Shown here: piece by piece, positions 459 to 13,305 of the stretch
Layout: each line of letters begins with the position of its first letter
How positions within the stretch are numbered: position 1 is the first letter of the stretch
DNA from: a virus
Lineage: Duplodnaviria > Heunggongvirae > Uroviricota > Caudoviricetes
Strand: one strand, 5' to 3'
Length of the DNA: 14,055 nt
IMG/VR virus record: IMGVR_UViG_2690316097_000008
The notes under the pieces: model-generated
Databases searched by the model: none
Told to the model about the DNA's origin: nothing
What the model saw: only the letters and a program-made list of their open reading frames with translations
Translations under genes and position numbers: made by a program

Positions 459-674
459 TTACTCTCCCCGTGCAGCCTTACGACGGTCCTCTCTGATTTT
501 GAAATACAGGTTAGTCAGATATGTCAGCAGCCCAAACAGCAGACTCCCCAGCACGCCTATTGCCGCCCACTGAGACGGGGAAACCCTGTCCAGCAACTGC
601 AGGAACCAGTAGCCCGTTCCCACCGCTGACGTGGTGTATGACACACCTGTTGTGATTTTTTCCATCTGGTACAT
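459..674 (-). CDS. S: Class II holin (pinholin), phage 21 S-like, with dual-start motif
   Basis: From the internal Met the product reads [71 protein letters not shown], nearly identical to the recalled phage 21 S21 pinholin. Two Met codons three residues apart match the S21 71/68 antiholin/holin arrangement. GGGAGA lies about 10 nt upstream; the track ORF 459..752 is an in-frame upstream extension with no RBS. Confidence 0.85.
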
Positions 675-824
675 ACCCCGTCTCCCGTTATCCGGAAGCT
701 GACAACAATAAAAAAAGCCACCAGTTAAGTACTGATGGCTCTGATAACTCATGCAGGCATCTCAGACGACCCACTGACACTACCGGTGAGTTTAACGATA
801 CCTTCCATTTGGCTGGCTCACTTT

Positions 825-2678
825 TTATGATGATGCCGGTGCATTTATCTCCAGCACCAGACTTTCTATCTCAACGCCATACGCTGCATTTTTGGTAATA
901 TCCGTCAGCGTCAGCGCATTCAGCCCCAGTGTCAGACTGTCTTTTATGACCTGGAATGCCGGGCCAGCCACTCCATTCAGTTTCGGAGTAACCGTGGCAC
1001 TGCCGGCGGTGAACACCAGCTCCAGCGTCAGCCAGTCGTTACTGTAATTCCCGAACTCGCCCAACTTTGTGTTTCCTGCTTTCTTGTGATGCATCAGATT
1101 CAGTTTGCCGTCTGTGGTCTGGGTGAAGAACGACATCAGGAACGGGTTACCAGTCCCGGTCATCGCCACGACGTCAGGTAACGCTACATCGGTATACAGA
1201 TAAATTCCCAGACCGAACTGGTTGTTGGTCAGTGCGCCTGACAGTCGAAACTTACAGCTCAGTCTGCCACCCCGTGTCAGCAGGGAGACTGCGTCATCCA
1301 CCGGGCGCGTCAGGGACCAGGCTTTATTGCTCTGCTTGGTGATCTTAAATACACCATCTGACAACTGAACTCCGCCATTCTTAATGCTCCAGCCCTGCGC
1401 AGCAGCGTCTCCGGCTGTCGGCAACAGGGAGATTGTGCGTATGGATGCATCTTCAGACGGCCCCGATGGCGTGTCGCCGCCGGGCGAGGGTTTGATTTCC
1501 GGTGCCTTACCACTAATGAAGGCTAAGGTGCGACCGGCTACGTTCAGAATAGCAGTTGCCATACGATCGGGAATAATGCCACGACGCGCCCATGAGCTGA
1601 AATGCGTCGGGCGATTTGATGATACCCAGTTTTTGTTCGTTCGGGATGCCGAACCGTAATAACCAGACCCGGCAATATCAGGATCTTCTGACGGGTTGTT
1701 TGTCGGTGTATTAACTCCGCTACCATCGGTCATAAAGGGAACAAAATAAATCTGCTGGGATTCTTTACCTTTATATGCACCATATACCACTTCATATTGC
1801 GTACCGTGTTCTTGTTTCCACGCGTATGTCGTGTCGCCACAAATCCAGGGGACTGATGCCGGACTTCCACCGTGACACTGCGCCGCCAGCCCGGCAAGGT
1901 CAGCACGGAACTGCTGTACCATTGCAAGAAATGCTGCTGGCTGCTGGGCGTAACTGGCATTCGTCATATCGAATTCCCCCTGCATCCAGCATATCGCCAG
2001 CAAAACGTTTTTCGGGTTTTTCTGCAATGCTGCCTTCGTGCGGAAAAGCAGATCCTGATATAACGGCTTACCCACTCCCCAGCGAGCCGAATCCTGACTG
2101 GCCCCCGTGGACTCGCTGAATGTCCCCTCCGTGCCCTGGGTGAATGCCGAACCACCACAACAGCATGGTACCAGCAGGATCCCCGCATTATTAGGGATAT
2201 ACGGAAGCAGTTTTTTGGCAATATGTAAGCCCTGTCCGACACAGCCGTACTGCCCTTTGCTCAGGTCAGCCCGGGGATGGTTAATCGTACTCATATCCTG
2301 AACATCATGCAGACAATGGTCAGCAGGAATGATGTCGTTAAATACGCATACTTCACCACCGGGAGTCACTGTGTTACGACGGGCCAGTTGCTTAATGCGC
2401 GGATGGGGCGCATCGTATGAATCCGGAAGCGGAAGACCTTCACCGTAAGCCATGGCATTGGATTGCCCGGCCAGTACGATGACGTAGTACCACTCCGGCT
2501 CAGTTGCACCACTGACGACCACATCACCTTCTGCTGCAATCGCCTGCATCAGGGTATAAGGGGTTATGGCCACCGGACTACCAAACGGCTGCCAGCCCTC
2601 CTTCAGTTTTTGTGTCAGTCGTTTCGCAAGGTCTGACGGCGATGCCGCCCTGACCACGTCATAGTGTTTAAATGCCAT
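825..2678 (-). CDS. nanS-p: Prophage sialate 9-O-acetylesterase NanS-p (N-terminal DUF1737-like region plus SGNH/SASA esterase domain)
   Basis: 617-aa ORF with ATG at 2678 and GGGAGGA 5 nt upstream. The block YYVIVLAGQSNAMAYGEGLPLPDSYDAPHPRIKQLARR...DIIPADHCLHDVQDMS...LLVPCCCGGSAFTQG...WMQGEFD matches recalled E. coli NanS/YjhS including the GQSN catalytic motif. Location upstream of the lysis genes is typical for lambdoid and Stx prophages. Confidence 0.9.
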   Translation of the reverse strand: MAFKHYDVVRAASPSDLAKRLTQKLKEGWQPFGSPVAITPYTLMQAIAAEGDVVVSGATEPEWYYVIVLAGQSNAMAYGEGLPLPDSYDAPHPRIKQLARRNTVTPGGEVCVFNDIIPADHCLHDVQDMSTINHPRADLSKGQYGCVGQGLHIAKKLLPYIPNNAGILLVPCCCGGSAFTQGTEGTFSESTGASQDSARWGVGKPLYQDLLFRTKAALQKNPKNVLLAICWMQGEFDMTNASYAQQPAAFLAMVQQFRADLAGLAAQCHGGSPASVPWICGDTTYAWKQEHGTQYEVVYGAYKGKESQQIYFVPFMTDGSGVNTPTNNPSEDPDIAGSGYYGSASRTNKNWVSSNRPTHFSSWARRGIIPDRMATAILNVAGRTLAFISGKAPEIKPSPGGDTPSGPSEDASIRTISLLPTAGDAAAQGWSIKNGGVQLSDGVFKITKQSNKAWSLTRPVDDAVSLLTRGGRLSCKFRLSGALTNNQFGLGIYLYTDVALPDVVAMTGTGNPFLMSFFTQTTDGKLNLMHHKKAGNTKLGEFGNYSNDWLTLELVFTAGSATVTPKLNGVAGPAFQVIKDSLTLGLNALTLTDITKNAAYGVEIESLVLEINAPASS

Positions 2679-2987: not shown

Positions 2988-3111
2988 NNNNNNNNNNNNN
3001 NNNNNNNNNNNNNNNNNNNNNNNNNNNNNNNNNNNNNNNNNNNNNNNNNNNNNNNNNNNNNNNNNNNNNNNNNNNNNNNNNNNNNNNNNNNNNNNNNNNN
3101 NNNNNNNNNNN
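2988..3111. other. Run of N (124 nt), assembly gap or masked sequence
   Basis: Direct observation. It is flanked by sequence repeated at 4264..4288 on one side and by a second nanS-p start on the other. Confidence 1.
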
Positions 3112-3765: not shown

Positions 3766-3977
3766 NNNNNNNNNNNNNNNNNNNNNNNNNNNNNNNNNNN
3801 NNNNNNNNNNNNNNNNNNNNNNNNNNNNNNNNNNNNNNNNNNNNNNNNNNNNNNNNNNNNNNNNNNNNNNNNNNNNNNNNNNNNNNNNNNNNNNNNNNNN
3901 NNNNNNNNNNNNNNNNNNNNNNNNNNNNNNNNNNNNNNNNNNNNNNNNNNNNNNNNNNNNNNNNNNNNNNNNNNNNN
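3766..3977. other. Run of N (212 nt)
   Basis: Direct observation. Confidence 1.
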
Positions 3978-4003: not shown

Positions 4004-4045
4004 NNNNNNNNNNNNNNNNNNNNNNNNNNNNNNNNNNNNNNNNNN
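4004..4045. other. Run of N (42 nt)
   Basis: Direct observation; the island 3978..4003 between the two N runs carries another ccgga-containing hairpin-like sequence. Confidence 1.
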
Positions 4046-4217
4046 CATTCAATAAAACATTCTGGAATTCAATCAAAAATAGCCAGGAATGCCCTACAAA
4101 TACAGATAACGTATTGAATGAATGCTTTAATAACCGTTGCACTCTGCAAATATGTCCTTATGGACTTTGTTGTTTTAGTCCATAAGGAGTTTACTCACAT
4201 CTGACAAAATCAATATA
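4046..4217. repeat. Direct repeat, copy 2 of 3582..3765
   Basis: Near-identical to copy 1, then followed by the 4222..4239 hairpin. Confidence 0.9.
4155..4188. repeat. Same 12-bp stem hairpin as 3699..3732 but with the loop inverted (ttgttgtttt)
   Basis: Direct observation. Confidence 0.9.
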
Positions 4218-4444
4218 AACAGCCCCTCCGGAGAGGGGCTGGAGAGTGGCGCTATGTGCCATTGCATGGTGCCGGGTGCCTCCCGGTGAATTCAGTACCA
4301 GCACCTGAATCCGCGATTATCCCATATACCTACTCGCTGATTGCCCCTCCGCACAGGGGGATTCACCATGCCAGTTTCTTTTAACAAACTCCCCGCAAAC
4401 CAGACAACAGTCAACCGCCTGAATTGTGAAGTATTTAAAAATTT

Positions 4445-4525: not shown

Positions 4526-4598
4526 NNNNNNNNNNNNNNNNNNNNNNNNNNNNNNNNNNNNNNNNNNNNNNNNNNNNNNNNNNNNNNNNNNNNNNNNN
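4526..4598. other. Run of N (73 nt)
   Basis: Direct observation. Confidence 1.
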
Positions 4599-5250: not shown

Positions 5251-5327
5251 TGGCGCGCTGTACTGGATTCGAACCAGTGACCGATTGCTTAGAAGGCAAT
5301 TGCTCTGTCCGGCTGAGCTAACAACGC
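5251..5327 (-). tRNA. argO: tRNA-Arg (anticodon UCU)
   Basis: Manual fold of the reverse complement: acceptor GCGTTGT/ACAGCGC, D-stem GCTC/GAGC, anticodon stem ATTGC/GCAAT with loop CTTCTAA, T-arm ACTGG-TTCGAAT-CCAGT, encoded CCA. The symbol is assigned by position in the recalled 933W ileZ-argN-argO order and is tentative. Confidence 0.8.
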
Positions 5328-5340
5328 ATGATGCAGATAA

Positions 5341-5417
5341 TGGACCGCCATCGGGGACTTGAACCCCGCGCAGCCAGCTTCGAAGGCTGGCGCTCTTTCC
5401 TGATGAGCTAATGGCGG
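5341..5417 (-). tRNA. argN: tRNA-Arg (anticodon UCG)
   Basis: Manual fold: acceptor CCGCCAT/ATGGCGG, D-stem GCTC/GAGC, anticodon stem CCAGC/GCTGG with loop CTTCGAA, T-arm CGGGG-TTCAAGT-CCCCG, encoded CCA. Symbol by position and tentative; a C1 5' base is unusual. Confidence 0.7.
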
Positions 5418-5424
5418 TATGTGA

Positions 5425-5500
5425 TGGTGGCCCTTGCTGGATTTGAACCAGCGACCTGGCGATTATGAGTCGCTCGCTCTCACCACTGAGCTAAAGGGCC
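5425..5500 (-). tRNA. ileZ: tRNA-Ile2 (anticodon CAU, lysidine-type; could also be read as tRNA-Met)
   Basis: Reverse complement GGCCCTTTAGCTCAGTGGTGAGAGCGAGCGACTCATAATCGCCAGGTCGCTGGTTCAAATCCAGCAAGGGCCACCA is close to recalled E. coli ileX/ileY; anticodon loop CTCATAA. Confidence 0.8.
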
Positions 5501-5540
5501 GGGAGCCGCATAATAACGACGCGTAATTAATTCTTCAATA

Positions 5541-6599
5541 TCATCCGTTCTGGCTGACTAAATCCTGTACTTCCCGAACCGTCTGCTCAAAACGTTCAGT
5601 CTCCAGCTCAACGCCAATTGCACGACGCCCGAGCGCCAGTGCCGCTTTCACTGTCGAACCCAACCCCATGAAAAAATCTGCAATCAGGTCACCCGGACGA
5701 CTGCTAGCGCTGATTATCTGCTGCAGCATTTCTGCCGGTTTTTCGCACGGATGTTTCCCGGGATAGAACTGCACCGGTTTATGCGTCCACACATCGGTAT
5801 ACGGCACCTGCACCGTCACGCCAAAATACCGCCGCAGATGTTTATATTCACTCAGCAGCTCCGCATACTGCCGGTTCAGTGAGGTATACGTATCCACCAG
5901 CTGGTGGTGGAGCTTTTCCAGTTCACCACGCCGATGCTTCTCTTCTGCCACCCGGGCAAACAGCGCCTGTAATTTCAGATAATCGCTTTCATTCGGCAAC
6001 TGCCACTGACCGGCACTGAACCAGTGCGACACCATGTTTTTCTTTCCTGTGGCATCTGCAATCTGTTTTGCCGTTATCCCCAGGGCAGCTCGCGCATCAC
6101 GAAAGTAAGAAATCAGCGGGGCCATCACATGCTGTTTCAGTGCACTGCCCTTCGCCGCATACCCGGCATCTTTCGGACGATACGGCCCCTGATAATGTTC
6201 CGCGAACAGAATGCGCTCTGTGGCGGGGAAATACGCCCGCAGGCTTTCCTTGTTGCATCCGTTCCAGCGTCCGGACGGCTTCGCCCAGATAATATGGTTC
6301 AGCACACTGAAGCGTTCACGCATCATGATTTCGATATCAGATGCCAGGCGATGACCACAGAACAGGTAAAGACTTCCGGCAGGTTTCAGCACCCGCCAGA
6401 ACTGCGCCAGACACTGGTCCAGCCACTTCAGGTAATCATCGTCGCCCTTCCACTGGTTATCCCAGCCCTCAGGCTTCACTTTAAAGTACGGCGGGTCCGT
6501 GACTATCAGGTCAACAGAATTTTCGGGTAACGACCGGATAAATTCCAGGCAGTCGGCGTTGATTAACTCACAACTGGATATTTTTACAGCATTAAGCAT
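5541..6599 (-). CDS. Orphan DNA methyltransferase (beta-class; N6-adenine or N4-cytosine)
   Basis: 352-aa ORF with ATG start. DLIVTDPPY catalytic motif near the N-terminus and FFMGLGST (FxGxG AdoMet motif) near the C-terminus give the motif IV-before-I order of beta-class amino-MTases. No restriction endonuclease gene is adjacent. Weak Shine-Dalgarno. Confidence 0.85.
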   Translation of the reverse strand: MLNAVKISSCELINADCLEFIRSLPENSVDLIVTDPPYFKVKPEGWDNQWKGDDDYLKWLDQCLAQFWRVLKPAGSLYLFCGHRLASDIEIMMRERFSVLNHIIWAKPSGRWNGCNKESLRAYFPATERILFAEHYQGPYRPKDAGYAAKGSALKQHVMAPLISYFRDARAALGITAKQIADATGKKNMVSHWFSAGQWQLPNESDYLKLQALFARVAEEKHRRGELEKLHHQLVDTYTSLNRQYAELLSEYKHLRRYFGVTVQVPYTDVWTHKPVQFYPGKHPCEKPAEMLQQIISASSRPGDLIADFFMGLGSTVKAALALGRRAIGVELETERFEQTVREVQDLVSQNG

Positions 6600-6691
6600 G
6601 GATCATTAAGCCTGTCTCTGATAGGCTCATTCTGCTTTTGCGCAAAGCAGTGGGCCTGAGGTTTGCTTGTGAACCCAACGCATGAGCAGAT

Positions 6692-6722
6692 GGCTGGTGG
6701 GTGCCCCTAACACCCACCAGCC
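6692..6722 (-). other. Very stable hairpin, 12-bp perfect GC-rich stem with 7-nt loop, in the HTH-MTase intergenic region
   Basis: ggctggtgggtg-cccctaa-cacccaccagcc. No U-tract follows on the minus strand, so it is not a classic intrinsic terminator. Confidence 0.6.
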
Positions 6723-6735
6723 GCCCATTTACCAC

Positions 6736-6763
6736 AAATAAAAAAGCCTTCACTGCGGAAGGC
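6736..6763 (-). terminator. Intrinsic terminator downstream of the small HTH ORF
   Basis: Minus-strand RNA reads gccuuc-cgcagu-gaaggc followed by uuuuuuauuug; the hairpin overlaps the ORF stop codon. Confidence 0.6.
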
Positions 6764-6947
6764 GTCTGTAACAACCGAACTGATAGTCTGCCAGACCCGC
6801 CATAACCAGCTGGGTCAGTATTAACTGGCAGCGTTCGCGTGAAAGGTAAGTATTCTGCGCTATCTCCCCGACTGTCGCCGGTTCGGTAACGCTTAATTCA
6901 TTAAACACCACTCTGGCGGTTTCTGTCATATCCTGCTGTTTTAGCAT
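6750..6947 (-). CDS. Small helix-turn-helix protein (65 aa), putative transcriptional regulator
   Basis: ATG with AAGGAAAAG Shine-Dalgarno 6-7 nt upstream. The segment TVGEIAQNTYLSRERCQLILTQL has HTH character. It lies between the pR'/tR' region and the MTase. Confidence 0.6.
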   Translation of the reverse strand: MLKQQDMTETARVVFNELSVTEPATVGEIAQNTYLSRERCQLILTQLVMAGLADYQFGCYRRLPQ

Positions 6948-7063
6948 GTCTTTTCCTTTTCCGGTTAACGTGACACACCAATAACTCTTGTCGAAAAAGC
7001 CAGCAAGCTGAAAGACAGGTATTCACCGCCACCAGCGCGTTTACTGTACTGACGCGATTTCAG

Positions 7064-7091
7064 TCATAAAAAACCCGCTCGGCGGCGGGTT
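7064..7091 (-). terminator. tR'-like intrinsic terminator about 40-65 nt downstream of the late promoter start site
   Basis: Minus-strand RNA reads aacccgc-cgccga-gcggguu followed by uuuuuuaug (plus-strand hairpin 7072..7091 preceded by ataaaaaa). Confidence 0.6.
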
Positions 7092-7126
7092 GTAGAAACT
7101 CTTCTAACGTCAGGCATAAAACGCCC

Positions 7127-7166
7127 ATCGTTATGACGAATTTACCACAGATTCCGGAAAAATCAA
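7127..7166 (-). promoter_or_regulatory. pR'-like late promoter with lambda-type promoter-proximal pause element (Q utilisation region)
   Basis: Minus strand: -35 TTGATT (7166..7161), 16-nt spacer, -10 TAAATT (7144..7139), then CGTCAT and AACGATGGG at about +1..+9. Recalled lambda pR' is TTGACT...TAAATT TGACTC AACGATGGG. It starts 5 nt after the Q stop codon. Confidence 0.65.
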
Positions 7167-7171
7167 CCTTG

Positions 7172-7993
7172 TTACCTAGTTACCTTTTTTAACTGCCGCT
7201 CAGCCCATGCTTCTTCAATATCAAACCGGGTCACCAGCGCATCATAGAATTTCTTAACTGTTTTTTCCCATGACGCGCGTGTTATCTGGTTTGTCACCTC
7301 GCATATAGCATTAAATGCCTCCGTTGATGGTAGTCTTTCATAGCCACGACCACCACAACGCTGGCAGTCTCTGATAACAGGCATACCACGTTTTACCGAC
7401 TCTTCACGATGAATGGCGACACCACGCCCACGGCAATCCTTACAGGCGGTGGAAACCTCACCCTTTCCGCCACACTCCGGACAGGCAACTTTTACCACCT
7501 CCCTGACTTTTTTCCATTCTTCCCAGTAAGACGGATACACACCTTTCGTACACTTTGCCCATACCGGCGGCTTACCATCCGGATACTGGATCTTGTTTGT
7601 AAAAACCTCGCTTTCAATAAATTTTTTTCCGTGACAGCAGGGGCACTGTTTTTTGCTCGCCGCGCTACGGGCATAATCTTCAAACGCATACGAAGCCATA
7701 ATACGCATCACTGCCGGTTTTATTTCTGCCGGGAGTTTTCTTAACGCCGCCACGCGATCACACCGACTGAGTGCATATTCTGTCAGCAATTCTGTTGCCC
7801 GCTCTCTGTCATTCATACTAATGCCCATTTTCCCAAGGAACGCAGAAACCCCCATCTCAGCCCGATTCTGTGTCATGCCCTGCGCGGCCATCACATCAGT
7901 GATACTCAGCGCATCTTTCGACGTTGAGGCCGATGCATCAGTCAGGCCGGGGGATTTTGGGGAGTAGTATTTCGGTAAATCTTCCAGTTTCAT
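7172..7993 (-). CDS. Q: Late-gene antiterminator Q (QuuQ/Qin-type, zinc-binding), copy 1
   Basis: 273-aa ORF. N-terminus MKLEDLPKYYSPKSP...SITDVMAAQGM and C-terminus ...QLKKVTR match recalled E. coli QuuQ, with several CxxC pairs. Its start overlaps the rusA stop (ATGA) and the pR' promoter follows immediately downstream. Confidence 0.8.
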   Translation of the reverse strand: MKLEDLPKYYSPKSPGLTDASASTSKDALSITDVMAAQGMTQNRAEMGVSAFLGKMGISMNDRERATELLTEYALSRCDRVAALRKLPAEIKPAVMRIMASYAFEDYARSAASKKQCPCCHGKKFIESEVFTNKIQYPDGKPPVWAKCTKGVYPSYWEEWKKVREVVKVACPECGGKGEVSTACKDCRGRGVAIHREESVKRGMPVIRDCQRCGGRGYERLPSTEAFNAICEVTNQITRASWEKTVKKFYDALVTRFDIEEAWAERQLKKVTR

Positions 7994-8095
7994 TTTTTGA
8001 CCTGCCCTTCAAGCATTATGGGATAAATCTTCACCCCCAGACGTCCACCAGATACTGGCTGAGCACGAACGATATTGATTTCATCAAACTGCTCA
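7990..8095 (-). pseudogene. rusA: rusA 3' fragment (about 35 C-terminal codons), cut off by the N run
   Basis: Near-identical to the 3' end of the rusA copies at 8849..8955 and 10592..10700. Confidence 0.6.
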
Positions 8096-8106
8096 NNNNN
8101 NNNNNN
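8096..8106. other. Run of N (11 nt) at a duplication junction
   Basis: Separates the rusA 3' fragment from sequence internal to Q copy 2. Confidence 1.
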
Positions 8107-8852
8107 AATTTCTTAACTGTTTTTTCCCATGACGCGCGTGTTATCTGGTTTGTCACCTCGCATATAGCATTAAATGCCTCCGTTGATGGTAGTCTTTCAT
8201 AGCCACGACCACCACAACGCTGGCAGTCTCTGATAACAGGCATACCACGTTTTACCGACTCTTCACGATGAATGGCGACACCACGCCCACGGCAATCCTT
8301 ACAGGCGGTGGAAACCTCACCCTTTCCGCCACACTCCGGACAGGCAACTTTTACCACCTCCCTGACTTTTTTCCATTCTTCCCAGTAAGACGGATACACA
8401 CCTTTCGTACACTTTGCCCATACCGGCGGCTTACCATCCGGATACTGGACCTTGTTTGTAAAAACTACGCTTTCAATAAATTTTTCCCCATAGCAACAAG
8501 GGCACTGCTTTTTACTCGCTGCGCTGCGGGCATAATCCTCAAAAGCGTACGAAGCCATAATGCGCATCACTACCGGTTTTATTTCTGCCGGAAGTTTTCT
8601 CAACGCCGCCACACGATCGCACCGACTGAGTGCATAATCTGCCAGTAATTCTGTTGCCCGCGCCCTGTCATTCATACTGATGCCCATTTTCCCCAGGAAC
8701 GCAGAAAACCCCATCTCAGCCCGATTCTGTGTCATGCCCTGCGCGGCCATCACATCAGTGATACTCAGCGCATCTTTTGACGTTGAGGCCGATGCATCGG
8801 TCAGGCAAGGGGATTTTGGGGAGTAGTATTTCGGTAAATCTTCCAGTTTCAT
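8107..8852 (-). CDS. Q: Antiterminator Q, copy 2; the last ~25 codons are missing at the N-run junction
   Basis: About 96% amino-acid identity to copy 1 over about 248 residues, with scattered substitutions (G16C, V49F, E64A, H118Y and others), so it is a distinct paralog and not an exact duplicate. The track ORF 8031..8852 reads through the Ns into the rusA fragment. Confidence 0.75.
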
Positions 8853-9223
8853 TTTTTGACCTGCTCTTCATGCATTATGGGGTAAATCTTCACCCCCAGA
8901 CGTCCACCAGATACTGGCTGAGCACGAACGATATTGATTTCATCAAACTGCTCATCGTCCATTAACACTCCCGCATGTGTCAGTGCATCCAGTGGTGCTT
9001 TCAGGATATTGTCCAGGTCACGACGGCGCTTATCCGGTGGCTCTGCAATAATCTTTATCGCCAGTCTTCCGGACAGGCTTAATTTCAGTCGCTGCTGACG
9101 GACAATAAGCGCCACATCCCGGCGATAACGCTCACCGGCTTTTGATACAAAATATGTGTTGTCACGACGTCGCCAGTAAGTATTCACCGTCGGCGGATAA
9201 GGTAAAATAAACTCATGGCGCAT
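8849..9223 (-). CDS. rusA: Holliday junction resolvase RusA
   Basis: 124-aa ORF with ATG start. LPYPPTVNTYWRRR...PDKRRRDLDNILKAPLDALT matches the recalled RusA family including the catalytic Asp cluster. Its stop overlaps the Q start. Confidence 0.85.
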   Translation of the reverse strand: MRHEFILPYPPTVNTYWRRRDNTYFVSKAGERYRRDVALIVRQQRLKLSLSGRLAIKIIAEPPDKRRRDLDNILKAPLDALTHAGVLMDDEQFDEINIVRAQPVSGGRLGVKIYPIMHEEQVKK

Positions 9224-9480
9224 CAGCGCAGCACCTCCTGCACCAGTTTTTCAAACTTTCCGACTCTGGTTTCCAGCTCTGCCACACAGTCCACCAGCTC
9301 ATCTACTGCTTTCTGTGCGCGATGCTTCGCCTGCATCAGTTCCCGAAGCGCGGGTACCATATCTTTACGGATAGCGTCTTTTGTTATGCCCGTTTTTTCG
9401 AGTTGTTCAGCATGACGCAGCATTTCCTGCGCGTGTTTACGCAATTGTTCAGGGGTAAAAGTCATTGTCTGGTTGTTCAA
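9223..9480 (-). CDS. Hypothetical small phage protein, predicted helical
   Basis: Track start at 9480 is TTG with GGAG 9 nt upstream; the first ATG is at 9465 with no Shine-Dalgarno. Its stop overlaps the rusA start by 1 nt. Confidence 0.55.
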   Translation of the reverse strand: MNNQTMTFTPEQLRKHAQEMLRHAEQLEKTGITKDAIRKDMVPALRELMQAKHRAQKAVDELVDCVAELETRVGKFEKLVQEVLR

Positions 9481-9691
9481 AAGAAACGCTCCATCTTACT
9501 GCTGTCAGTTCGTTTATTACTGTATCTGCGCGGATTGCCGGGCTTCATGGGAGTGGAAAGCACCCGTGCACTTTCCTGGTCCACAGGCAGAAAATGTCCG
9601 TAGACTGGCCCCCTGAATCTCCAGACAACCAGTATCACTTAAATAAGTGATAGTCTTAATACTAGTTTTTAGACTAGTCATTGGAGTACAG

Positions 9692-10057
9692 ATGATTGAT
9701 GTCTTAGGGCCGGAGAAACGCAGACGGCGTACCACACAGGAAAAGATCGCAATTGTTCAGCAGAGCTTTGAACCGGGGATGACGGTCTCCCTCGTTGCCC
9801 GGCAACATGGTGTAGCAGCCAGCCAGTTATTTCTCTGGCGTAAGCAATACCAGGAAGGAAGTCTTACTGCTGTCGCCGCCGGAGAACAGGTTGTTCCTGC
9901 CTCTGAACTTGCTGCCGCCATGAAGCAGATTAAAGAACTCCAGCGCCTGCTCGGCAAGAAAACGATGGAAAATGAACTCCTCAAAGAAGCCGTTGAATAT
10001 GGACGGGCAAAAAAGTGGATAGCGCACGCGCCCTTATTGCCCGGGGATGGGGAGTAA
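9692..10057 (+). CDS. insC: IS2 transposase OrfA (InsC)
   Basis: [56 protein letters not shown]... matches recalled IS2 InsC; 121 aa from the ATG at 9692. Confidence 0.9.
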
Positions 10058-10431
10058 GCTTAGTCAGCCGTTGTCTCCGGGTGTCGCGTGCGCAGTTGCA
10101 CGTCATTCTCAGACGAACCGATGACTGGATGGATGGCCGCCGCAGTCGTCACACTGATGATACGGATGTGCTTCTCCGTATACACCATGTTATCGGAGAG
10201 CTGCCCACGTATGGTTATCGTCGGGTATGGGCGCTGCTTCGCAGACAGGCAGAACTTGATGGTATGCCTGCGATCAATGCCAAACGTGTTTACCGGATCA
10301 TGCGCCAGAATGCGCTGTTGCTTGAGCGAAAACCTGCTGTACCGCCATCGAAACGGGCACATACAGGCAGAGTGGCCGTGAAAGAAAGCAATCAGCGATG
10401 GTGCTCTGACGGGTTCGAGTTCTGCTGTGAT
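10015..10431 (+). pseudogene. insD: IS2 transposase OrfB (InsD), N-terminal part only
   Basis: The orfB frame reads ...[44 protein letters not shown]...[14 protein letters not shown] and then meets the N at 10432 and unrelated phage sequence. Confidence 0.75.
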
Positions 10432-10432
10432 N

Positions 10433-10595
10433 TCCCCAGGAACGCAGAAAACCCCATCTCAGCCCGATTCTGTGTCATGCCCTGCGCGGCCATCACATCA
10501 GTGATACTCAGCGCATCTTTCGACGTTGAGGCCGATGCATCAGTCAGGCCGGGGGATTTTGGGGAGTAGTATTTCGGTAAATCTTCCAGTTTCAT
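10433..10595 (-). pseudogene. Q: Antiterminator Q, N-terminal 54-codon fragment (copy 3), abutting the truncated IS2
   Basis: MKLEDLPKYYSPKSPGLTDASASTSKDALSITDVMAAQGMTQNRAEMGFSAFLG; the DNA matches copies 1 and 2 from about 10433 onward. Confidence 0.7.
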
Positions 10596-10972
10596 TTTTT
10601 GACCTGCCCTTCAAGCATTATGGGATAAATCTTCACCCCCAGACGTCCACCAGATACTGGCTGAGCACGAACGATATTGATTTCATCAAACTGCTCATCG
10701 TCCATTAGCAACCCCGCATGCGTCAGCGCATCCAGCGGCGCTTTCAGAATATTGTCCAGGTCACGGCGGCGCTTATCCGGTGGTTCTGCAATAATTTTTA
10801 TTGCCAACCTTCCGGACAGGCTTAATTTCAGCCGCTGCTGGCGAACAATAAGCGCCACTGCCCGGCGATAACGCTCCCCGGCTTTTGATACAAAATATGT
10901 GCTGCCACGACGACGCCAGTAAGTGTTCACCGTCGGCGGGTAAGGTAAAACAAATTCTATGCGCTCGGTCAT
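10592..10972 (-). CDS. rusA: Holliday junction resolvase RusA (second full copy)
   Basis: 126 aa, about 93% identical to the copy at 8849..9223. Its ATG directly follows the stop of the upstream DUF968-like ORF. Confidence 0.85.
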   Translation of the reverse strand: MTERIEFVLPYPPTVNTYWRRRGSTYFVSKAGERYRRAVALIVRQQRLKLSLSGRLAIKIIAEPPDKRRRDLDNILKAPLDALTHAGLLMDDEQFDEINIVRAQPVSGGRLGVKIYPIMLEGQVKK

Positions 10973-12031
10973 TTATGCTTTCCACTTCAGAACACCCGAA
11001 TTTCTCGCGTGCATTAAAAAACGAATCAGCAACAACAGCTGACTGCCGTGTTTCTCTTCAAAATCTTTTACTCCGGCATGTAGTTCGTTACGGCATTTAC
11101 GGCATAACGGAATAACAAACAAATCATCAGCCTTTGTTCCCATCCCTCCCAGTCCATGACCAATGATGTGATGCGGATCATCTGCCTGATTGCCACACGT
11201 CATGCATTTCTGCGTTTTTACCCAGCGCGTGTATACAGGCATCTCTTCCCGTTGTGATTTCTGGCGCTGGAGATACTGAGCCGGTGACTCCGGATCAACG
11301 GCAATGCTGACCACCGTCTTTTCCTGTGGTGGGTTCTGTTGCTGGTGGACGTGAGGCAGTAACGCAATATTTTTTGTGCGCTGCTTCAGTATGCTGGTGG
11401 CTGTCTGCTCTCCCGGTATGATGTCGCTTTCACTGTACACAGAGCGAATTTTTTCCGCACGCAACCCCAGCGAACGACGTAATACCGCTTCCGGTAGCGC
11501 GTCCGCCACCTGATTGCGGACCGCCCACCAGGATAATTCAGCCAGAGATAATTCACGCTCCTGCGTACCGCTTATTGCGTGACCGATGACGTCAATCATC
11601 CATGCTGACAGGTTTTGATGAGCAAGTTGCTCGAGTGATTCGGATGTCTGGTCACGCAGCTGGTTGTCGCAGTGCCAGCACAACACCATTGCGCCGGTAC
11701 CATAACGGTGAATGACGGTTTCGCTGTGATGATAATCGCCGTGTGGCCACTGGCAGGATTTAATATGGCGCAACAGCCAGTCAGACAATGCACCAGCACC
11801 ACCAGCAGCACGAATCACCCGTGCGTTACTGAAAAACGGCAGCAATGTTTTGTCTTCCACCAGCGGCTGGCGAGCGGCAGGAACGACCCCGGACGGCAGA
11901 TTACGCATGCTTTTTGGTTCCGGCTCCACCAGTATTCTGCCGTTATGGAATGCTGACATTGATTCACGGCCTGGCTTAACGATAACCAGACCGAGTTCCG
12001 GTACCAGAACAGGTCGAAGTAATACCCGCAC
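10973..12031 (-). CDS. Lambdoid prophage DUF968-family protein (YdfU-like) with a C-terminal Cys/His HNH-like motif
   Basis: 352-aa ORF. The C-terminus CMTCGNQADDPHHIIGHGLGG...LCRKCRNELH is zinc-finger/HNH-like. Position upstream of rusA-Q matches the Qin ydfU position. The start codon is GTG with GGAGG 4 nt upstream and overlaps the upstream ORF stop. Confidence 0.7.
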   Translation of the reverse strand: MRVLLRPVLVPELGLVIVKPGRESMSAFHNGRILVEPEPKSMRNLPSGVVPAARQPLVEDKTLLPFFSNARVIRAAGGAGALSDWLLRHIKSCQWPHGDYHHSETVIHRYGTGAMVLCWHCDNQLRDQTSESLEQLAHQNLSAWMIDVIGHAISGTQERELSLAELSWWAVRNQVADALPEAVLRRSLGLRAEKIRSVYSESDIIPGEQTATSILKQRTKNIALLPHVHQQQNPPQEKTVVSIAVDPESPAQYLQRQKSQREEMPVYTRWVKTQKCMTCGNQADDPHHIIGHGLGGMGTKADDLFVIPLCRKCRNELHAGVKDFEEKHGSQLLLLIRFLMHARNSGVLKWKA

Positions 12032-12858: not shown

Positions 12859-13014
12859 TTACTCCTCAGGTTCGTAAGCTGTGAAGACAGCGACCTCCGT
12901 CTGGCCGGTTCGAATTCGTACCTCGCAGAGGTCTTTCCTCGTTACCAGTGCCGTCACTATGACGGTTAAACAGATGACGATCAGGGCGATTAACATCGCC
13001 TTTTGCTGCTTCAT
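12859..13014 (-). CDS. hokD: Hok/Gef-family type I toxin, HokD (RelF)-like, 51 aa
   Basis: MKQQKAMLIALIVICLTVIVTALVTRKDLCEVRIRTGQTEVAVFTAYEPEE matches recalled E. coli HokD. AGGAG lies 9 nt upstream of the ATG at 13014. The track ORF extends in frame to an ATG at 13071 with its own GAGG. Confidence 0.85.
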   Translation of the reverse strand: MKQQKAMLIALIVICLTVIVTALVTRKDLCEVRIRTGQTEVAVFTAYEPEE

Positions 13015-13305
13015 AGCCTGCTTCTCCTTGCCTTTCGGCACGTAAGAGGCTAACCTAGATTTGCCGTTCATAGATTGAGCCTCAGATTAATGTTAAGCGT
13101 CTTGCCGGACGCGTAATGTTAACTGGGGCTTTTCTCTATCTGCCTTTTGGTGTTCATGCCTGAGACAGATAGCCTCAAGCACCCGCTGCAATTCTACTTA
13201 ACTCTCCTTTTCCCGCAAACCGTTTTTATCCCCAGCGGCAAATCGAATACACCACCAGCGCCACCGCCATCGCAATTCCTACCGTTGTTAATGCTTCAGG
13301 CCAGG

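Follow-up and report, generated by a model that had tools for sequence, protein, structure and literature searches.

A 14,055-nucleotide stretch of viral DNA (IMG/VR record IMGVR_UViG_2690316097_000008, Caudoviricetes; here called the window) represents a lambdoid prophage, read here along its minus strand, with a DNA methyltransferase gene whose placement points to control by the phage late antiterminator Q. The minus-strand order is Q, the late promoter pR', the terminator tR', an open reading frame (ORF) of 65 amino acids (aa) called ORF65, a second terminator, the gene for a 352-aa methyltransferase, and three tRNAs, with 224 nucleotides (nt) between Q and ORF65 and 150 nt between ORF65 and the methyltransferase gene (Table 1). 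The explanation proposed here, which is probable as a whole, is that a methylase of the M.EcoGI/M.EcoGII type lies among the first genes of the late operon, would be off in the lysogen, would be driven by Q after induction, and would protect phage DNA. The late-expression logic of a preliminary description, made earlier from the sequence of this DNA, is sound; its observation is confirmed and its interpretation is partly supported. As a prophage gene, the methyltransferase is unremarkable and very common. The locus is of interest because it is explicitly linked to late control of the lambda type and has an unannotated structured leader with a winged-helix neighbour, the leader being the only new lead.

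The methyltransferase and its probable late control

The 352-aa product of ORF 5541-6599 matches PF01555 N6_N4_Mtase (E-value 7.9e-42). DPPY is found at residues 35-38 (nt 6486-6497) and FxGxG, here F-M-G-L-G, at residues 310-314 (nt 5658-5672). The order of DPPY, a central target-recognition domain and FxGxG within an N6_N4_Mtase fold is that of the beta class, and the coordinates, motifs and orphan beta-class assignment of the preliminary description hold on the minus strand. The absence of a cognate nuclease that it had reported is also borne out, since the PADLOC restriction and defence models, run on ten window proteins, matched only the methyltransferase. The nuclease-type Pfam matches among the neighbours are limited to RusA and a DUF968/HNH-like protein of the nin region.

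Over its full length the window methyltransferase is identical to M.EcoGII at 323 of 349 residues (93%, E-value 0.0). The reference sequence was machine-read from the supplement of PMC11551740 and contains a few reading errors, so the true identity is probably slightly above 93%. Judged by sequence, the gene is a lambdoid-prophage copy of the non-specific N6-adenine methyltransferase M.EcoGI/M.EcoGII, an already known family. It resembles M.EcoGI and M.EcoGII of the Escherichia coli O104:H4 C227-11 prophages in this identity, in length (352 versus 349 aa), in its beta-class order and in its lambdoid-prophage location, but the window allele has Leu for Ser at FxGxG position 313 and has Ala4. 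The placement after pR' and tR', ORF65 and the leader are not described in the papers found on M.EcoGI and M.EcoGII. Alpha-class promiscuous phage adenine methyltransferases such as M.HaeV (cited in PMC5778455) likewise come from phages or prophages, show very relaxed specificity and presumably counteract restriction. In them, however, the motif order is reversed (FxGxG first, then DPPY), and the target-recognition domain is unrelated. M.EcoGIX was considered as the phage enzyme and ruled out, being plasmid-borne and specific for single-stranded DNA in the literature.

Murray et al. (2018; PMC5778455) described M.EcoGII as a 349-aa beta-class enzyme of an E. coli O104:H4 prophage that methylates adenine whatever the context. 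Its substrates in vitro include single-stranded DNA, RNA:DNA hybrids and RNA, with activity on RNA much below that on DNA, and blanket N6-methyladenine (m6A) blocks many restriction enzymes in vitro (PMC5778455). The preliminary description had suggested mapping a defined modified motif; the family of this enzyme is characterised and methylates adenine in any context, and therefore there is no motif to map. M.EcoGII is unexpressed in its native strain, and its constitutive expression gives slow-growing, unstable cells (PMC5778455). Murray and coworkers proposed that the gene is switched on at prophage excision and defeats restriction, and they named phage 1720a-02, to which the window DNA is a 94.6% match, as the carrier of a very similar enzyme (PMC5778455). 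In uninduced cultures the homologue of sequence type 131 (ST131) gave no detectable methylation pattern, and it was predicted to be inactive from reverse transcription PCR, which showed no transcript (PMC4659465); in O111 strains, likewise uninduced, no methylation signature was attributable to homologues (PMC6602927). M.EcoGII is on commercial sale and, in the papers found, has wide use in m6A chromatin footprinting and in the engineered methylation of RNA. Little on its natural regulation is reported in the papers searched.

The putative late control region resembles that of lambda. PF03589 is the Pfam family of both lambda Q and the window Q, and the two proteins are 32% identical (BLASTP, E-value 4e-41). 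The candidate pR' follows directly after the Q stop codon on the minus strand and consists of TTGATT (7166-7161), a 16-nt spacer, TAAATT (7144-7139), the 6 nt cgtcat and AACGATGGG (AACGAT GGG, 7132-7124). Lambda pR' consists of TTGACT, 17 nt, TAAATT, tgactc and AACGATGGG, and the final 21 nt (TAAATT-N6-AACGATGGG) agree with it in all 15 specified bases. The window contains this 15-base pattern a single time, and it is absent from all of 200 shuffles. The promoter was missed by a sigma-70 consensus scan with a threshold of 9 of 12, since its hexamers match at 8 of 12 positions. In lambda, the AACGAT element induces a sigma-dependent pause where Q loads. The tR' hairpin (7091-7072) is followed by a T run; it persists in each of the five phages that were aligned, irrespective of Q type, although its loop varies.

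Lambda late control (Q, pR' with its pause element, 6S RNA and tR') and that of the window are thus alike in a PF03589 Q, an identical TAAATT-N6-AACGATGGG and an intrinsic terminator after the promoter. They differ in the spacer with the Q-binding site, in a zinc-finger insert of about 66 aa in the window Q, and in the insertion of ORF65, the methyltransferase gene and the tRNAs between tR' and the lysis genes. They also differ in the terminated RNA: the uninduced pR' transcript of the window would stop at tR' after about 65 nt, whereas the terminated RNA of lambda is 194 nt long. The predicted short RNA from pR' to tR' (7068-7139, minus strand) has a sub-threshold Rfam match to isrK, an Hfq-binding RNA of Salmonella prophages (16 bits, E-value 0.6).

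A second hairpin (6763-6746) with a T run after it lies at the end of ORF65, whose stop codon spans the loop-stem junction. The hairpin is maintained across genera by compensatory changes, and its T run is weak in many genera. From tR' to the start codon of the methyltransferase gene, the consensus scan found no sigma-70-like site of at least 9 of 12 on the coding strand. The placement given in the preliminary description, with the methyltransferase after pR'/tR' and a further terminator and before the tRNAs, is upheld by the two hairpins with T runs and by the lambda-identical pR' element. Because of this placement the gene is expected to be silent in the lysogen and expressed on induction, as had also been claimed, and this expectation fits the published silence of M.EcoGI/M.EcoGII (PMC5778455, PMC4659465, PMC6602927). 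Q-dependent expression, which we infer from the sequence and from the published lysogen silence, is the best-supported reading and is well supported by sequence.

In the lysogen, polymerase starting at pR' (7166-7139) would halt at tR' (7091-7066), and polymerase reading through tR' would meet the second terminator at the end of ORF65 (6763-6736), with the result that the enzyme would not be made. Keeping the enzyme off would matter because constitutive M.EcoGII harms the cell. On induction, the lambda-family Q would engage polymerase paused at AACGATGGG, and the Q-modified polymerase would pass both terminators and transcribe ORF65, the leader, the methyltransferase gene and the tRNAs, and then the lysis genes. 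Packaged genomes could then withstand m6A-sensitive restriction systems in the next host. The placement of pR', tR' and the second terminator would offer a concrete reason for lysogen silence and for the harm seen under constitutive expression. It also predicts heavily adenine-methylated progeny phage DNA, which bears on the crossing of restriction barriers by Stx-type phages.

The leader of the methyltransferase gene

The preliminary description had called 6600-6750 intergenic DNA. This does not hold, as most of it is a conserved leader of about 140 nt (6600-6736) with base-pair covariation, which accompanies the methyltransferase with or without ORF65. The 6600-6750 stretch is more conserved than ORF65. 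The leader helices are P1 (6722-6711/6703-6692), P2 (6690-6685/6667-6662), P5 (6656-6650/6630-6624) and P3 (6648-6644/6638-6634). A covariance model (R1) built from 31 sequences matches 55 of 57 loci, and the leader ends at the same position, at the ATG, in the 53 matches with a directly mapped methyltransferase start, whether or not ORF65 is present. Elsewhere in 694 kilobases (kb) the model gave only three marginal matches.

On the model-based alignment 95% of the cells pair. Changes on both sides are seen in 17 of 29 leader pairs, against 6.0 in shuffles (0/500) and at most 8 with the partners slid. Nine of the 12 pairs of P1 covary, and one pair of P2 passes through C-G, A-U, U-A and U-G. 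An alignment fitted to a structure is biased towards that structure; nonetheless, the compensations in P1 and P2 are visible in the raw sequences. An unguided MAFFT alignment, in which the 3' arm of P1 was misaligned, gave almost no covariation term with RNAalifold (-0.65), and the covariance-model alignment took its place. The fold of the window leader has a z-score of -3.2. No conserved reading frame was found in the leader, and a Shine-Dalgarno-like 4-mer before the ATG is absent in 46 of 54 distinct leader sequences. Rfam 15 (4227 families) gave nothing below an E-value of about 2 on the leader strand of the window, with a sub-threshold P26 match (E-value 0.011) on the opposite strand, and in two other loci (L091 and L165) no Rfam match at an E-value of 1 or less overlaps the leader.

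We regard the leader as a candidate for a new cis-regulatory RNA, one that probably restricts translation of the methyltransferase or sets its timing, and it may pair with bases just upstream of the AUG. The fuller claim, that it is a previously undescribed cis-regulatory RNA gating translation of a harmful non-specific adenine methyltransferase, is made tentatively and at somewhat less than an even chance. The leader resembles translation-gating 5' leaders, such as riboswitches, RNA thermometers and leaders bound by proteins, in its length, in abutting the start codon, in its four covarying helices, in the usual lack of a Shine-Dalgarno sequence and in a possible helix over the bases just 5' of the AUG. 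It differs from described RNA leaders in that none of the 4227 Rfam families matches it.

The alternative helices P0, P4 and the long-range GGUCA:UGAUC are 88-97% paired and too conserved to test. Two of them, P0 and GGUCA:UGAUC (just 5' of the AUG), are 96-97% paired, too invariant for a covariation test, and each is mutually exclusive with P2. A switch with two alternative folds is therefore possible, in which a P0+P1 hairpin with GGUCA:UGAUC would cover the ribosome-loading region and the alternative P2 fold would free it. Such a switch could respond to ORF65, to autoregulation by the methyltransferase (possibly through m6A on its own leader) or to a metabolite, S-adenosylmethionine (SAM) or S-adenosylhomocysteine (SAH). 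ORF65 is a candidate ligand of the leader because SelB-type winged helices bind RNA hairpins. The structured leader and its winged-helix neighbour are leads on the dosing of a cell-damaging enzyme in lytic growth.

In Photorhabdus and Xenorhabdus (L137-L164) the leader is shorter, occupying 76-101 nt before the ATG, and retains GTGAAATGG, a covarying P1-like hairpin and a CCAGAGA motif. This short leader is barely detected by the Enterobacteriaceae covariance model. A 60-aa ORF starting with TTG (6592-6774) was considered as a gene and ruled out, as stops and indels break the frames in other genera. Chi in the 5' arm of P1, suggested as a conserved feature by five E. coli phages, was also ruled out, since Providencia, Yersinia, Rahnella and Lonsdalea keep the pairing by double changes and lose Chi.

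ORF65 and the weighing of other explanations

ORF65 has a good ribosome-binding site (AAGGAAAAGAC before the ATG) and belongs to phrog_331, a family of unknown function. Its only Pfam match is a sub-threshold one to TrmB (18 bits against a cut-off of 25.6), and a few homologues have a precomputed match to PF17782 DprA_WH. An AlphaFold2 model (predicted local distance difference test score, pLDDT, 86) predicts a three-helix winged helix, H1-H2-H3 with a beta-hairpin wing. The nearest solved folds are IclR/MarR/ArsR winged-helix domains, N-terminal domains of O-methyltransferases and SelB RNA-binding domains. The query-normalised TM-score reaches 0.83 against IclR-type domains, with weak Foldseek E-values (at least 3e-3), as expected for 65 aa. 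The ratio of nonsynonymous to synonymous substitution rates (dN/dS) is 0.02-0.11 against orthologues of other genera and 0.00 against phiP27, and ORF65 is therefore a real gene under purifying selection. Thus the small helix-turn-helix (HTH) protein of the preliminary description stands as a gene, but its fold is modelled as a winged helix and not as a classical HTH.

ORF65 lies about 150 nt upstream of the methyltransferase gene in 67 of the 68 viral loci with enough downstream sequence. At the species level it is upstream of the methyltransferase gene in 51 of 75 loci, reaching Photorhabdus, Xenorhabdus and Providencia, and is absent in 24. The 22 of these 24 loci that were searched with the covariance model (all except L147) retain the methyltransferase, and 20 of the 22 retain the leader. 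The 5' untranslated region of ORF65 contains CTTGCTG, about 17 nt, CAAGAGTTATTGGTGTGTCAC and the ribosome-binding site, with a Chi sequence at 7029-7036. The arrangement of terminator, CTTGCTG, about 17 nt and (A)CCAGAGTTATCTGTATGTCAC is conserved to Providencia and Photorhabdus (loci L086-L165). In most genera a similar motif, YCAGAGTTA, precedes the methyltransferase ATG by 16-24 nt.

The controller (C) proteins of type II restriction-modification systems have an Xre-type HTH, bind inverted repeats known as C-boxes and set the timing of nuclease expression. Like C.PvuII and C.AhdI, ORF65 is a small protein of DNA-binding type encoded just upstream of a modification gene, and the preliminary description had placed it in the position of a controller protein. 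This assignment fails: no Xre-type HTH_3 domain was found in ORF65 by Pfam or in the AlphaFold2 model, no nuclease gene accompanies the methyltransferase, no C-box-like inverted repeat of at least 8 nt was found between 7060 and 6948 upstream of ORF65, and a terminator intervenes between the two genes. ORF65 is a frequent but dispensable winged-helix accessory, absent from many lineages. It has been considered whether ORF65 could still be a dedicated controller-like transcription regulator that binds its own 5' untranslated region and/or 6600-6750 and switches the methyltransferase from a local promoter largely independently of Q. The resemblance of its fold to IclR/MarR/ArsR repressors, the strong purifying selection, the fixed distance to the methyltransferase in Enterobacteriaceae, the highly conserved non-coding DNA that flanks it and the recurrence of YCAGAGTTA upstream of both start codons would agree with such a role. 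The reading is unlikely, given the differences from C proteins above, the lack of a promoter-like site at the scan threshold in either region, the retention of the methyltransferase and mostly of the same leader where ORF65 is absent, and a putative recognition helix whose start varies between lineages while the leader is unchanged.

Several points weigh against the explanation by Q-driven late expression. Literature searches on Q-dependence or induction of EcoGI/GII found nothing, and among the open-access papers searched none mentions EcoGII together with antitermination. A promoter that is weak or of a non-canonical type could be concealed in the conserved ORF65 5' untranslated region (CTTGCTG-N17-TAT...). 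The anti-restriction role of the phage enzyme is a published proposal, which the progeny-protection idea of the preliminary description matches. Rearrangement of the surrounding prophage, which has Q and RusA genes in duplicate, an insertion sequence (IS) element and runs of N, may have left it uninducible. For the leader, the counts of G-U and A-C pairs (95.0% versus 94.0%) do not tell the folding strand apart. Finally, Leu313 replaces a Ser that is invariant in the family, so this copy may be impaired.

The last point could be taken further, to a decaying, non-functional allele in a cryptic prophage, in which S313L in the SAM-binding loop abolishes activity and the locus is without present function. 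Motif I is DFFMGLG here instead of the family-invariant DFFMGSG. G-S-G is present in all 117 cluster representatives where the motif was found, and Leu313 occurs in 0 of 108 aligned full-length homologues, in all of which Ser is invariant. No complete E. coli genome is identical over the 130 nt around codon 313, the best match being 99.2% (one mismatch); 130 nt were used since in a 51-nt query the private base leaves arms below the 28-nt word. The duplicated and truncated Q and RusA genes, the IS3-family element and the runs of N nearby are also consistent with decay. Yet the reading frame is full length with only two private substitutions, and the other motifs of the enzyme are intact, as are Q, pR', tR' and the leader. 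The Leu313 codon (TTG, 5661-5663) differs by a single C-to-T transition from TCG and is possibly a sequencing error. In CcrM, a beta-class enzyme of solved structure, Val occupies the equivalent position, and thus S313L need not inactivate the enzyme; FxGxG is formally still satisfied. A dead allele is rather unlikely, and the S313L enzyme is presumed to be active.

Two further alternatives concern the leader and the purpose of methylation. The 140-nt element might act as DNA and not as an RNA leader, either as a palindromic protein-binding site or as a Chi-bearing recombination linker that promotes module exchange between phages. Such a function would draw on the Chi sequence in the 5' arm of P1, another upstream of ORF65 and a total of 12 in the window against 0.58 expected, as well as on mosaic breakpoints on both sides of the module and on pair counts that name no folding strand. 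It appears improbable, as P1 pairing is kept by changes on both sides where Chi is lost (L165, L160, L163 and L136), covariation extends over four separate helices, the element always abuts the ATG in a single orientation, and a Shine-Dalgarno sequence is usually absent. It is very unlikely that the enzyme serves mainly another role than protection from restriction, such as methylating RNA or single-stranded DNA intermediates or host DNA (lytic reprogramming), or marking phage DNA against m6A-sensitive phage or host nucleases. The activity of M.EcoGII in vitro on single-stranded DNA, RNA:DNA hybrids and RNA (PMC5778455), the expression of the gene with phage tRNAs ahead of the lysis genes and the structured leader as a possible substrate would allow such a role, but activity on RNA in vitro is much below that on DNA, and the blocking of many restriction enzymes by blanket m6A is a sufficient selective explanation.

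Distribution and genomic surroundings

The arrangement on which the Q-dependent reading rests is widespread. Of 5426 complete E. coli genomes, 3177 match the 1.67-kb stretch from the Q stop codon to the tRNAs; so do 254 phage records, for the most part those of Stx2 converting phages and with phiP27 and 1720a-02 among them. In the Stx2 converting phages the module lies between Q and stx. With Stx2 phages whose Q belongs to another family (PF06530), homology begins precisely at the tR' hairpin, and a Q of the window type occurs in only 19 of the 77 viral loci with identical ORF65 and enough upstream sequence. By this evidence Q and pR' are one exchangeable module, and tR', ORF65 and the methyltransferase gene are the next. 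Among the 64 species-level loci with full flanks, a recognisable Q is present upstream in 39 and a same-strand holin or lysin downstream in 44, and a terminator is found ahead of the cassette in every genus examined. In a Kosakonia locus (L093) the order is Q, AACGATGGG, terminator, leader and methyltransferase, with ORF65 absent. A 409-aa gene of the GIY-YIG nuclease family, which the window lacks, separates Q from the homologue of ORF65 in phiP27 (L001 2702-3931).

Table 1. Features of the window, listed in minus-strand order.
Feature	Position	Strand	Basis
DUF968 gene	10973-12031	-	gene order; RusA alongside
Late antiterminator Q, 273 aa, lambda-Q family with extra zinc-finger insert	7172-7993	-	PF03589, E-value 1.6e-53
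Candidate late promoter pR'	7124-7166	-	identity to lambda pR'; function by homology with lambda
Intrinsic terminator tR'	7066-7091	-	7-bp GC-rich stem and T run
Conserved ORF65 5' untranslated region	6948-7065	-	near-invariance among E. coli phages
ORF65, winged-helix protein, phrog_331	6750-6947	-	phrog_331, E-value 1.4e-37
Second terminator-like hairpin	6736-6763	-	GCCTTC cgcagt GAAGGC and T6AT3
Conserved structured leader, about 140 nt, ending at the methyltransferase ATG	6600-6736	-	covariance model R1
M.EcoGII-family beta-class N6-adenine DNA methyltransferase, 352 aa	5541-6599	-	PF01555; 93% identity to M.EcoGII
tRNA cluster, ileZ-argN-argO type, downstream in the same orientation	5251-5500	-	ARAGORN and Rfam
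STnc100 small RNA	4211-4400	-	Rfam, full-length, 132 bits
NanS-type esterase gene	825-2678	-	gene order
P21-type holin gene	459-752	-	gene order

The three tRNAs are annotated in relatives as tRNA-Ile, tRNA-Arg and tRNA-Arg. The tRNA at 5425-5500 (minus strand) is tRNA-Met (CAT) according to ARAGORN and tRNA-Ile (ileZ) in phiP27 and RefSeq E. coli records. Past the stop codon of the methyltransferase gene and ahead of the first tRNA there is a promoter-like site (5510-5538, minus strand; TTGAAG, 17 nt, TATTAT), and the tRNAs may have their own promoter there. Runs of N are found at 2988-3111, 3766-3977, 4004-4045 and 4526-4598, between the tRNAs and the esterase gene. This interrupted stretch is the location of stx in Stx phages, and the window sequence there cannot be judged. 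The STnc100 RNA, of which a partial second copy lies near 2930-2990, is related to the PasD small RNAs of Stx-type prophages according to a 2026 preprint. It was considered as an alternative late-leader RNA and dropped, being in the literature a separate prophage small RNA related to PasD.

Upstream of Q lies a second Q copy (8031-8852), in which the C-terminus beyond a run of N (8096-8106) has been replaced. The RusA gene is present in two copies (8849-9223 and 10592-10972), and an N-terminal Q fragment (10392-10595) abuts transposase ORFs of the IS3 family (9647-10430). The arrangement of 8031-10972 is either that of a rearranged prophage or a scaffolding artefact of assembly. The early region contains a hok-type toxin ORF and a sok antisense RNA (13009-13184, minus strand; Rfam, 112 bits). 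The Chi sequences of the window (GCTGGTGG; expected number from shuffles) are distributed as eight on the minus and four on the plus strand, with examples at 7029-7036 (minus), 6714-6721 (minus), 6693-6700 (plus), 5894-5907 (both strands) and 11341-11864, several of them as inverted pairs.

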